Part shown: in pieces, positions 16,150 to 19,506 of the stretch | Position numbering within the stretch: the stretch's first letter is position 1 | How the letters are laid out: the number at the start of each line of letters is the position of its first letter | Source of the DNA: a virus | Lineage: Duplodnaviria > Caudoviricetes | DNA: 25,529 bases | IMG/VR virus record: IMGVR_UViG_3300016667_000182 | Coordinates: 1-25,529 of that record | Direction: 5' to 3' (one strand) | Made by a program: the position numbers and the translations under genes | Notes under the pieces: model-generated | Database searches by the model: none | What the model was told of the DNA's origin: nothing | What the model saw: only the letters and a program-made list of their open reading frames with translations

Positions 16150-16606
16150 CAGTTACTTCCGTAGTAATAATCTCTACAGGTATGCGGGCTTCATCAAACA
16201 TCTCCTGCGCTGCTCTAAAGTTATCCTGCCAAGCCGATGGTACTTCTGGCATGTAAGCAACGACACGCGAGATGCCTGACTGAATAATGATCCCCGTGCA
16301 GTTGGCGCAAGGGTGTAATGGTGAGACATACAGCGTGCAGTTCTTTACTGGTTGTCCCGCCGTTAGGATTGCGTTGACCTCGGCATGGACAGTCCGCATT
16401 AGCTTCGTCGGGCGGTCTTGATAAAGCGTCCCTGTATCTCTGGTGCCCCTTGGAAATCCATTATAACCAACCGACACAATGGTTTTGTTCGGTCGCACGA
16501 TAACAGCACCGACTTTCGTCGACGGGTCTTTGCTCCACGACGCCACGAGAGAAGCCATCTCGAGAAAGCGTTTATCCCATTTGCGATAGTAAGTTTGAGC
16601 ATCCAT
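16130..16606 (-). CDS. dCMP deaminase (start revised to MDAQTYY)
   Basis: SKDPSTKVGAVIV, GYNGFP, HAEVNA and PCANC zinc-deaminase motifs; ATG 16606 overlaps the TGA of an upstream micro-ORF. Confidence 0.92.
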   Translation of the reverse strand: MDAQTYYRKWDKRFLEMASLVASWSKDPSTKVGAVIVRPNKTIVSVGYNGFPRGTRDTGTLYQDRPTKLMRTVHAEVNAILTAGQPVKNCTLYVSPLHPCANCTGIIIQSGISRVVAYMPEVPSAWQDNFRAAQEMFDEARIPVEIITTEVTDVGPSI

Positions 16607-16695
16607 CAAGCGCCCCGCATATAGTACGCGGCGAAGTAGCATCCGCACGCGATGCCACATATGAAGAAGAATATATTGTAGAAGATCTCATCCAT
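16606..16695 (-). CDS. 29 aa hydrophobic micro-protein (not in ORF track)
   Basis: MDEIFYNIFFFICGIACGCYFAAYYMRGA; RBS AGGAAAACCACA-ATG; TGATG coupling to dCMP deaminase. Confidence 0.6.
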   Translation of the reverse strand: MDEIFYNIFFFICGIACGCYFAAYYMRGA

Positions 16696-16707: not shown

Positions 16708-16745
16708 AAAATGGCCCCCAGTGCTGGAGAAACACACCGGGGGCC
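16708..16745 (-). terminator. Intrinsic terminator-like hairpin
   Basis: Minus strand GGCCCCCGGTG-TGTTTCTCCAG-CACTGGGGGCC-ATTTT. Confidence 0.65.
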
Positions 16746-16819
16746 TAGTTTACGAACAGAGACAGTAGGGTTGGGACGAAGCCGCTGGGTGCAACTATCG
16801 CTCCAGACAATGACTTATG

Positions 16820-17191
16820 TCATTGCCCTCTCGCACTGTCAGGCGAGAGCTCTTTGTGCGAGTTACTCTTGGAAGTAACTCCACGGATCTTTTCCTTCAT
16901 CGCTGGTTCAAGCCAATAGCCGACTGACTGACGCGACTTAATCTCGATGCCGTATGGTTTAAGCCTACGGCGCAAACGATAGATCGCTACTCGTCCTGAT
17001 GCGGCAAGGCCAAGCTGCTGCTCTAACATCTCGTGCGTCACATACGATAACGCCACGAGTAGACCTAATATCCTACGAAGTGATGGTGGTAGTTTGTACT
17101 GCGCTGTGAGTGGGTCGACTAGTTTTAGTGTTCCTTCTAAGTCTCGTATGCGTTCGCGAAGTGCTTCGATCTCAGCGACTTTGTTCATCAC
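16820..17191 (-). CDS. Winged-helix DNA-binding protein (OmpR/PhoB C-terminal-like, no receiver domain)
   Basis: RVAIYRLRRRLKPYGIEIKSRQSVGYWL fits the recognition helix plus wing pattern; N-terminal coiled coil. Confidence 0.75.
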   Translation of the reverse strand: MMNKVAEIEALRERIRDLEGTLKLVDPLTAQYKLPPSLRRILGLLVALSYVTHEMLEQQLGLAASGRVAIYRLRRRLKPYGIEIKSRQSVGYWLEPAMKEKIRGVTSKSNSHKELSPDSARGQ

Positions 17192-17348
17192 GCTGGCCCC
17201 GAATATCTTCTGCGTAAAGGTGGCGAGACTTATCCTGTTCCTCGAGTAACTTCTCCAAGTAACGTGCTCTGCGGCATACGATCATGCCGAACATTGCGCC
17301 ACACGATGCTGCCATGGTTGTAAGGAGTGCTAGTTTAATCCAGTCCAT
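17172..17348 (-). CDS. 58 aa putative membrane protein (not in ORF track)
   Basis: MDWIKLALLTTMAASCGAMFGMIVCRRARYLEKLLEEQDKSRHLYAEDIRGQRDEQSR; fills the gap and overlaps the next start; RBS weak. Confidence 0.5.
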   Translation of the reverse strand: MDWIKLALLTTMAASCGAMFGMIVCRRARYLEKLLEEQDKSRHLYAEDIRGQRDEQSR

Positions 17349-17359
17349 GCAGCACCGAG

Positions 17360-17427
17360 AAAAGGAGCGATGGGTTTTACCCCATCGCTAAGTCAAGGGA
17401 GGAAACGCCCAAGGAAGATCCTCGAAC
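17360..17427 (-). ncRNA. MmgR/SuhB (alpha-r8)-like small RNA
   Basis: 5' stem GUUCGAGGA-UCU-UCCUUGGGC, then the decamer UUUCCUCCCU, UGACUU and terminator AGCGAUGGG-GUAAAA-CCCAUCGCU-CCUUUU; own promoter upstream. Confidence 0.78.
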
Positions 17428-17433
17428 AAGAAA

Positions 17434-17462
17434 ACGCTAAACTTTTTTTCCTGCCATGTAAA
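17434..17462 (-). promoter_or_regulatory. Sigma70-type promoter for the sRNA
   Basis: Minus strand TTTACA (17462-17457), 17 nt spacer, TAGCGT (17439-17434); +1 would fall at the start of the 5' stem. Confidence 0.6.
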
Positions 17463-17500
17463 GCTGCTAAAAGCGGTAGTCTGGCCCATAATGGGGCACG

Positions 17501-19369
17501 TCATTTTGCGTCACCGTATGACGGGCCACAGTCGGCTTCTGCTGATAGGGGTAGCCCCACTGCCCAGCTCGGTGCCGTACTCATCTCATCGAGAACCATC
17601 TGAGTTACGACCGGGACCATGTCATGCGGCACGATGTAAATAAGTTCGTCATGGACCTGACCAGCGAGCTGGATGTCGTAGGTAGCGAGTTGTTTACGAA
17701 GGCGCAGTGCAGCATCCATCACCACGATGCGAGCCAAGGCTTGGATGATGTTCTCGAGCAGCTTGCCACCAAAGATCTTCTTGCCCTTGGTCCGACCGTA
17801 GTCGAACACCCACTGCCCATCGTCCTGCCTTAGATTATGGTAGTAGAGCGACAGACCTGACGGCAGGTCGACGCGGTTCTTGCGAGCGGTAACCTTGCTA
17901 GTTACCGGACCAAGGCTAAGCGGCTCGTCGGTTGCAGCGATGTAGGACAGGGCATCGTTGAGCTTGGACCATGTCGCTGGGATGTTGGGATAGGTCGTGC
18001 GGTAGGTCGTAACGATACGCTGTGCCTCGTTATCGGATAGGTCGATCTCCTGACCCAGTTGGTTCTTAGACTGGATCTTGACGGTCGCTTGGAACTTAAC
18101 CCAGCCCATGCCGTAGCCTAGTCCCAGCACGGCGGTCTTACCAATAAACCGTTCAACCTTATCGGCCTTGGTGACAGGCTTACCGAACACGACAGACGCG
18201 AAGGATGAGTAGACGTCCTCGCCAGCGGCGAATTGCGCCACGAGGTTATCCTGCTGCGCGAACCACGCGACCATACGTGCCTCAATCTGTGCTGCGTCTG
18301 CGGCCACGACAGAGAAGCCATCGGGTGCTCTGAGTGCCTGACGTAGCTTACCGCCACGGGGGAGGTTCTGCATGTTGATACCCCAGTCGCCGGAGAGGCG
18401 GTGCGTGTGGGCACCGGAGTAGCGGAGCGGCATGGGCATGATAGCGCGCTTTCCATCCAGCCACTGGAGGGTAGCGATGCGCAGGAACTTCTCTGTGCGG
18501 CTCTCTTCTAGGGTCGATTTAAGTCCCAAGCGAGCAGACACAAGAGCCTGTACATCTGGATTTTCGTGCTCCTCTAACTCAAGGAAGGCATGGTCCGTCT
18601 TGGAGAAGGCGTAGGTTGACCGGCCAGTTGTGAGCGATGTCTTCATCGGTGGCTCGATCCCAAAGGCACGTAGGGCCTGAGCAAACTTCTCATTGCTCAT
18701 GAGATCGTCGCGTGATGTTAGACCGGCACGGGCGAGCAGTGCCTCCTTACTGTTGCGGACTTCGTGTAAGTGTTCGGCGAGCAGGTTACTATCGAGAGTA
18801 AACTCTGGTTCAACAGCACAGCGTAGCACCATGTCTTGGATGACAAGTTCTGACACCGGGAATGGTTGTAGCTTCTTATAGATTTCACGACAGAGCTCGA
18901 CATCGTTAAGCGCATACTCTGCGAGTTGCTCGTACAATCCAGCTTGCTTCATCATCGCAGCGTTCATGCCAGCGACCTTCATGATCGCTTCGCCCTTAAC
19001 ACCGACACCGAAATGATTAGCTAGTGAGGATAGCGATAGTGAGGTGGTGTTATAGGCACACTTCGCACGCGCCATGCCGAGCGTATCGATCATTAGCTTC
19101 GGCACGATACCGTAGCGCCATGACAGGATACTCATGTCGAATAAAGCGTTATGGCTAACAACCTTTGAGCTAGCCAATAGATTGTAGTTGTCGAACACCC
19201 ACTGCTTAAACTCGTGTTCATCAAGCCAGAATGGCGCGTCATCATTAAGCGCGACTGCGGCACCGATGCACTCGAAGCGAGGATCTAAGATATACTCGAC
19301 GGGTGTCATACGACGCAGTGAGTATTCGGTGGAATAGTATGTTTCGAAATCGAGATAGATTGTCTGCAT
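17501..19369 (-). CDS. polA: Family A DNA polymerase with 3'-5' exonuclease
   Basis: Exo motifs LDFET, HNALFD, YALND; polymerase motif A DAAQIEAR, B RFIGKTAVLGLGYG, C VHDE. Confidence 0.95.
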   Translation of the reverse strand: MQTIYLDFETYYSTEYSLRRMTPVEYILDPRFECIGAAVALNDDAPFWLDEHEFKQWVFDNYNLLASSKVVSHNALFDMSILSWRYGIVPKLMIDTLGMARAKCAYNTTSLSLSSLANHFGVGVKGEAIMKVAGMNAAMMKQAGLYEQLAEYALNDVELCREIYKKLQPFPVSELVIQDMVLRCAVEPEFTLDSNLLAEHLHEVRNSKEALLARAGLTSRDDLMSNEKFAQALRAFGIEPPMKTSLTTGRSTYAFSKTDHAFLELEEHENPDVQALVSARLGLKSTLEESRTEKFLRIATLQWLDGKRAIMPMPLRYSGAHTHRLSGDWGINMQNLPRGGKLRQALRAPDGFSVVAADAAQIEARMVAWFAQQDNLVAQFAAGEDVYSSFASVVFGKPVTKADKVERFIGKTAVLGLGYGMGWVKFQATVKIQSKNQLGQEIDLSDNEAQRIVTTYRTTYPNIPATWSKLNDALSYIAATDEPLSLGPVTSKVTARKNRVDLPSGLSLYYHNLRQDDGQWVFDYGRTKGKKIFGGKLLENIIQALARIVVMDAALRLRKQLATYDIQLAGQVHDELIYIVPHDMVPVVTQMVLDEMSTAPSWAVGLPLSAEADCGPSYGDAK

Positions 19370-19431: not shown

Positions 19432-19506
19432 CAGCCACGGCGGTGGCTCTCCTTGGGTGGGAGTTAGTGGGCGGCGAGGTTGGTGGTTACCCTCGCCGCC
19501 CTTTTT
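19432..19506 (+). ncRNA. Candidate plus-strand small RNA
   Basis: Hairpins AGCCAC-GGCG-GTGGCT and CTCC...GGAG, then an 11 bp stem (19469-19479/19491-19501) with a T-tract on the + strand only. Confidence 0.55.

Follow-up and report, generated by a model that had tools for sequence, protein, structure and literature searches.

Among the alpha-r8 or suhB-type small RNAs, the mmgR orthologues presumably correspond to subfamily alpha-r8s1. An account of the suhB family gives its layout as a promoter, a short helix near the 5' end, an unstructured core and a terminator (PMC1273637), and in mmgR the first loop exposes an anti-Shine-Dalgarno (anti-SD) sequence, according to the available portion of PMC7143759. 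As far as the available text of PMC12559287 goes, SisA of Caulobacter crescentus represses mRNAs, many of them for TonB-dependent receptors or transporters, through direct pairing of its 10-mer, and the CrfA sponge removes SisA in starvation. SuhB of Sphingopyxis granuli TFA blocks the SD of thnR with Hfq, as stated in the accessible section of a preprint (bioRxiv 10.64898/2025.12.09.693200). SisA-D and SuhB, which have family and seed in common with the phage RNA described here and for which SD repression with Hfq has been shown, are chromosomal and stand under host factors (the CrfA sponge, a LysR activator), whereas the phage copy leads a phage operon.

Small RNAs encoded by phages themselves provide a second comparison. 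Lambda 6S and StxS are terminated late-promoter transcripts, and to our knowledge VpdS, PreS and 6S all have phage-specific sequences, none being a captured copy of a conserved host small-RNA family. VpdS of phage VP882 and PreS and 6S of lambda are phage RNAs that use host Hfq, in what is accessible of the accounts of them. We found no report of a phage-borne alpha-r8 RNA in the literature, where the 2016 paper that defined alpha-r8 and the 2017 MmgR paper might still mention one, and the available portion of a 2025 review of phage small RNAs (PMC12197685) mentions neither suhB, MmgR nor alphaproteobacteria. In this study we describe such an RNA in a 25,529-nucleotide stretch of viral DNA, referred to in its whole length as the window, which is a linear virus record, 42% complete. 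The element in the window is a real RNA gene under selection, and the RNA of this phage clade is a new variant of a known RNA family in an unusual carrier.

Anatomy and family assignment of the small RNA

The gene lies on the minus strand at 17360..17427 and is predicted to give an RNA of 68 nt, an assignment backed by its match to Rfam RF00519, its fold and its synteny in relatives. Transcription is predicted to start at the G at 17427, downstream of a predicted sigma-70 promoter with the -35 hexamer TTTACA (17457..17462) and the -10 hexamer TAGCGT (17434..17439). All seven variants found in the clade keep TT....A in the -35, the 17-nt spacer and T1, A2 and T6 of the -10, the middle of which is variable. 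The -10 of the window is weak, with consensus bases at only 3 of 6 positions, and for this reason the site is missing from the promoter scan list; the promoter is a prediction supported by the conservation of its key positions. A CtrA box was also considered, as a TTAA-N7-TTAA-like site with one or two mismatches precedes the -35 in five of the seven variants, the window not among them, and was rejected because the genomes show no enrichment of such boxes and the site resembles a dispersed repeat.

The RNA opens with a 5' stem-loop of 9 bp, three of them G-U pairs (17407..17427), in which GAGGA pairs with UCCUU, a sequence that lies in an open loop in MmgR, and masks it; across the seven variants the unpaired probability of UCCUU is 0.03-0.37. 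A single-stranded linker of 17 nt follows (17390..17406), which holds UUUCCUCCCU-UGACUU, with the 10-mer (17396-17405) and GACUU. The 10-mer has an unpaired probability of 0.94 in the window and of 0.79-0.94 across the variants, and the chance expectation in the shuffled window is 0.01 occurrences for the exact 10-mer and 0.05 for a 16-mer with at most two mismatches. The RNA would end at a predicted intrinsic terminator (17360..17389) with a 9-bp stem (17389-17366) and a short tail, CCUUUUCU, that finishes near 17360, the U-tract of the window being the shortest of the five variants compared for the tail. In the terminator, five of eight base-anchored pairs change on both sides among the seven variants, with one mismatch in two near-identical variants, while the 5' stem lacks covariation support because its sequence is invariant. 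These counts were used in place of an RNAalifold consensus on a MAFFT alignment, which gave a seed-to-terminator fold and was rejected because the 3' arms were misaligned.

The stretch of 73-77 nt folds with a z score of -4.1, none of 200 shuffles being equally stable. The anatomy in the original prediction, that is promoter, 9-bp stem, linker, terminator and a length of about 68 nt, proved exact. In silico, the phage RNA has the features of the family: an unpaired 10-mer, a terminator right after the core, a short 5' helix and a putative upstream promoter. Metatranscriptome contigs from two runs of one study cover 16900-17374 and 17110-17418, and none covers 17419-17971; these contigs carry no end or strand information and possibly derive from DNA, and they were left out of the evidence for expression.

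A local Rfam scan returned suhB (RF00519) as the best match over the full model length, at 36.3 bits and an E value of 1e-5. The match to suhB that was expected from the original prediction was thus found, without reaching the gathering score of 41 bits, which is the curators' working cut-off and not a biological feature; the window has no match to any Rfam family at or above the cut-off of that family. Every clade member scored also falls under the RF00519 cut-off (32.3-37.1 bits), and because of these scores we file the RNA as a divergent variant. Together with direct alignment to S. meliloti mmgR and with synteny and covariation in relatives, the Rfam match supports the phage-encoded alpha-r8/suhB identity that had been read from the letters alone.

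Comparison with MmgR of S. meliloti shows where the phage RNA departs from its closest described counterpart. Both RNAs have the 10-mer, GACUU, CCUUGGG, a short 5' helix and a terminator; the two linkers differ by one base, and their pairing energies with ribosome-binding sites (RBSs) correlate with a rho of 0.87 over 253 S. meliloti genes. However, MmgR has CCUCCUU around its open first loop, while the phage clade has no CCUCCU and its UCCUU is paired with GAGGA. The 9-bp phage stem closes on the same GGGC as the family helix, yet extends over the loop. The mmgR locus scores 61.3 bits against the 36.3 bits of the phage-encoded RNA, and is convergent with an N-formylglutamate amidohydrolase (FGase) gene. 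By tblastn this gene was found at none of 96 phage and metagenome loci, while the control locus L193 matched, and the clade promoter regions contain neither a PhaR/AniA operator (0 of 7, with the motif taken from the available part of PMC12542648) nor a sigma-54 motif (none in 7). Given the masked or lost first-loop anti-SD, the missing FGase neighbour and the missing PhaR operator, the phage RNA is, as judged from sequence, a divergent alpha-r8 and not an mmgR orthologue in the narrow sense. We also note that record CP090106.1, 3.7 Mb long and labelled pSymB, carries mmgR, hisN, cpdR1 and ilvD; it appears to be the S. meliloti chromosome.

Carriers of the element in one phage clade and in other viruses

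The minus strand of the window encodes a polymerase, a dCMP deaminase, an exonuclease, a helicase and a primase, and the window also has a repressor-like XRE gene. The family A DNA polymerase gene (17501..19369, minus strand, identified with PHROGs and Pfam) is the upstream neighbour of the small RNA. A strong 11-bp hairpin just upstream of this gene (19470-19501; z -5.3 on the coding strand) is U-tailed on the antisense strand only and may be a processing site or an antisense terminator. G001, a relative that is 93% complete, encodes head, portal-type, internal virion and tail-fibre proteins; a scan of 52 of its 67 called proteins showed no integrase. We infer an alphaproteobacterial host, since the closest isolates are the Rhizobium phages RHph_TM3_14A, TM27 and TM29 (polymerase 47%, primase 43%, ATPase 40%) and several top matches of the G001 endolysin are alphaproteobacterial phages. 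The tail fibre of G001 matches cyanophages and was left out of this inference, and a scan of bacterial genomes for the host gave two loci, a MAG contig at 42% and a 27-residue match, neither of them informative. DNA of the phage was found in freshwater and estuary runs. In RHph_TM3_14A, the gene at 42263-45298 annotated as 'putative integrase' matches the DUF927 primase/helicase of the window at 43%, and this annotation looks wrong.

In a set of 36 polymerase-related loci, the core directly follows the stop codon of the polymerase gene in all four whose polymerases are 77-82% identical, and none of the 32 with at most 47% identity has it at the polymerase within the flanking DNA covered. In the polymerase tree of 21 rows, the four carriers that were included group together in a single clade (100/100), whose sister is RHph_TM3_14A, a phage without the module; this grouping is consistent with one gain. 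RF00519 searches over whole records gave 33.6 bits for G001, 32.3 bits for G002 and 15.2 bits for RHph_TM3_14A, and no match in records G003 and G004. A pattern search with the variant 5' stem added six metagenome contigs, each of which encodes the same polymerase (72-82%), and this brings the number of distinct variants to seven. Since these contigs were found using the core itself, the invariance of their core is by construction, and the unbiased test of conservation is the set of three lineages found by protein search. In these, the element has 25 consecutive invariant bases; the polymerase gene, in the same comparison, keeps 64 of 237 four-fold sites invariant with a longest invariant run of 17.

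An exact 19-nt alpha-r8 core occurs in about 180 viral stretches, so phage alpha-r8 copies are common. From 44 of the 64 parts of the viral search we took 120 core-bearing loci. In their 112 distinct copies, a hairpin and T-tail stand right after the core in 99, against 21 of 600 random positions, and the canonical 5' hairpin (GCCC-loop-GGGC) is kept in 80; all 19 copies scored, out of the 120, pass the RF00519 cut-off. A census of upstream genes covered 73 loci, that is 75 distinct loci less L023, dropped as coding, and L048, which has no upstream gene. The upstream neighbour matches a PHROG at 40 of the 73, 15 of the neighbours belonging to one antiterminator family, and capsid, portal, endolysin and repressor genes are found among the others. 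The viral alpha-r8 copies are phage cargo and not host flanks. The canonical copies, in viral contigs and in Bradyrhizobium phage ppBeUSDA76-1, have core and terminator as in the window and are unannotated; they differ from the copy of this clade in that they mostly have GCCC-loop-GGGC, pass the Rfam cut-off and often follow an antiterminator gene, while the copy of the clade follows the polymerase gene.

Two further observations were made in this wider set. The antiterminator family is phrog_6386, which directly precedes alpha-r8 at the 15 viral loci and in two Bradyrhizobium phages (L016, L024, L027, L033, L035, L046, L052, L059, L061-L063, L066, L067, L070, L079, L002 and L004), and several of these copies are followed by HNH or terminase genes, which is where the leader of a late promoter would lie. 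Canonical alpha-r8 copies also occur in phages deposited as Microcystis phages, namely L003 (PP395640.1, 62.8 bits) and, by a partial blastn match, OM681334.1; the canonical copy is a hint that their true host is perhaps an alphaproteobacterium of the culture.

The downstream operon and a second structured RNA

Beginning 12 nt past the terminator, a gene encodes a 58-aa peptide with a hydrophobic N-terminus (17172..17348, minus strand), which shows 32-37% identity in relatives and no family match. It is followed by a gene for a stand-alone winged-helix protein (16820..17188, minus strand), likely of the OmpR/PhoB DNA-binding-domain type according to ESM Atlas clusters (PF00486 at 0.92); Pfam gives E values of about 0.01 in two orthologues, below its cut-off. 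RHph_TM3_14A has a homologue of this gene, with a promoter-like site, TTGACA-17-TATATA, in front of it and no small RNA. The promoter of the small RNA probably also drives this membrane-peptide and winged-helix operon by read-through, and it probably served the winged-helix operon first, the captured RNA now being its leader. To call this promoter the RNA's own, as in the original prediction, is therefore an incomplete description.

The operon ends in a second conserved structured RNA of about 145 nt (16708..16852, minus strand), with hairpins, a pyrimidine-rich linker, a terminator and a possible loop-to-linker pseudoknot. Copies are found at L170:3070-3200, L175:3103-3245, L179:988-1123, L181:986-1134 and L182:1770-1919. 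Eight of its 33 pairs change on both sides and 97.9% of cells pair, and in six of six lineages a GACAGU in a loop and a distal ACUGUC are both invariant and complementary to each other. The RNA has no Rfam match; among 93 sources, its model found copies in the clade only, and the exact pattern occurs in four clade contigs only. One strain variant alters base 16843 in its first hairpin. The two RNAs pair weakly with each other, in a way that is not conserved, and the gain from co-folding is -1.5 to -6.2 kcal/mol. After the second terminator, a 29-aa hydrophobic peptide (16606..16695, minus strand) can be read from the sequence in four of seven loci and is absent in L175, L179 and L183. The terminators of both RNAs thus immediately precede genes for short hydrophobic peptides.

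A bipartite repeat, GTWAC-N6-8-GTWAC, is dispersed in these genomes, with 19 occurrences in the window against about 0.8 expected, 35 in G001, 26 in G002, 33 in RHph_TM3_14A, one in G003 and none in G004. The repeat and the winged-helix gene occur together (4/4 against 0/2), and the repeat is possibly a genome-wide binding site.

Proposed function and competing readings

Blocking of host RBSs through the anti-SD seed, as put forward in the original prediction, is by analogy with SisA and SuhB the best reading of this RNA. We give about an even chance to the full proposal that it is an Hfq-dependent alpha-r8 mimic, captured by the ancestor of the clade, that likely represses host transporter and metabolic mRNAs at their RBSs during infection. 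According to this proposal, the ancestor of the phage clade would have captured a host alpha-r8 gene, which now follows the DNA polymerase gene closely, with a predicted sigma-70 promoter before it and a terminator after it. In an alphaproteobacterial host, the 68-nt RNA would be transcribed from this promoter and load on host Hfq, and the exposed UUUCCUCCCU would pair with RBSs of transporter and metabolic mRNAs and repress them. The alpha-r8 regulon, which comprises TonB-dependent receptors and other transporters in Caulobacter, may in this way be repressed free of host PhaR control. The short U-tract may be partly read through to supply the peptide and winged-helix genes, for which the RNA would double as leader.

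A weak hint for such repression in trans comes from the carriers' own genes, whose RBS regions are poorer pairing partners of the seed (181 genes against 221 non-carrier genes, p 0.006, in a non-independent comparison of one clade with three phages). GGAGG occurs in 11 of 181 RBS regions of carriers and in 33 of 221 of non-carriers, with starts chosen by SD score. What weighs against the trans reading is the suhB score below cut-off, the weak -10 of the window and a duplex-energy target prediction that is without power, as shuffled linkers pair with 23-85 of 253 S. meliloti genes and the phage linker with 60.

Also against repression in trans is the position of the element, which is that of a leader or attenuator, and this leads to the alternative that survives best, which we nevertheless consider unlikely: that the captured gene acts only in cis, its C-rich seed pairing with the G-rich 5' arm of the terminator and tuning read-through into the downstream operon. 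The next open reading frame begins only 12 nt past the terminator, and in RHph_TM3_14A a plain promoter stands directly before the same winged-helix gene. An antiterminator gene stands directly before the copy at 15 of 73 other viral loci, and this arrangement would also suit action in cis. The seed-to-5'-arm fold appears in six of six variants when the 3' arm is blocked, and RNAalifold chose it, on the misaligned set. However, the stability of this alternative fold is lower by 7-11 kcal/mol, and its register varies between variants. In addition, a switch that acts in cis would have no need to keep the 10-mer and GACUU exactly as in the host, and other copies lie in unrelated contexts, such as beside capsid, portal, endolysin and repressor genes.

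The carbon-storage role in the original prediction, taken here as an MmgR-like action on phasins that would limit polyhydroxybutyrate (PHB) and redirect stored carbon to phage production, was left unsupported by our analysis and comes next in order, as an improbable reading. The phage linker is almost identical to that of MmgR, and PHB rises when the MmgR 10-mer is lost (available text of PMC12559287). However, phasin RBSs rank only 59 and 188 of the 253 genes sampled from S. meliloti, a stand-in host, and the PhaR operator is absent from all seven promoters. Furthermore, the first-loop anti-SD of MmgR is lost or masked in the phage RNA, and a direct MmgR target had not been identified, as far as the same available text goes.

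Another improbable reading, which we rank just behind the PHB reading, is that the RNA is a decoy that titrates Hfq or a CrfA-like sponge and so alters host small-RNA activity, pairing with no mRNAs itself. In the accessible portion of PMC12559287, the conserved 10-mer region of SisA-D is where CrfA binds, so the phage copy offers the same site, and VpdS of phage VP882 competes for Hfq, in the accessible portion of PMC12197685. Nevertheless, an intact seed on Hfq should repress targets too, as SisA does without its siblings (PMC12559287, available portion). Less probable again, and in our judgement quite unlikely, is that the targets are phage mRNAs, either for the timing of the phage's own genes or among genes of competing phages. 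Many RBSs are possible partners of an anti-SD seed, and one of the 30 genes of the window comes to -13 kcal/mol or below; but the top-ranked genes seem, by eye, not to be common to the window, G001 and G002, the RBSs of carriers pair less well than those of non-carriers, and the gain from co-folding with the second RNA is small. Finally, a chance terminator or a constraint from a 77-codon opposite-strand open reading frame (17370-17603), which the score under the Rfam cut-off and an antisense ATG-initiated frame across the core in three of six lineages might suggest, is largely refuted and highly improbable, as that frame is absent in the other three lineages and has no family match, and the conservation pattern follows RNA structure and not codons.

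Beyond RBS repression by this one RNA, we also advance a wider proposal, tentatively and with clearly less confidence, that alphaproteobacterial phages have repeatedly captured a host Hfq small RNA as an auxiliary regulatory RNA. In this clade the capture would have led to a two-RNA cassette, consisting of the alpha-r8 copy, in which one of the two anti-SD sites is masked, and the new pseudoknotted 145-nt RNA, that flanks a winged-helix gene whose product would bind the genome-wide repeat.

Auxiliary metabolic genes of phages are well known, whereas there is hardly any description of phages in which a conserved regulatory RNA of the host is present as a working copy. More than 100 viral contigs have alpha-r8 copies, and the unrelated gene contexts of these copies suggest repeated capture. 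The version in this clade is missed by routine annotation because its score lies under the Rfam cut-off. Because the clade RNA keeps only the 10-mer, it is a natural mutant that would allow a direct test of which part of an MmgR-type RNA regulates, and it also bears on what a phage may gain from switching on the alpha-r8 regulon.
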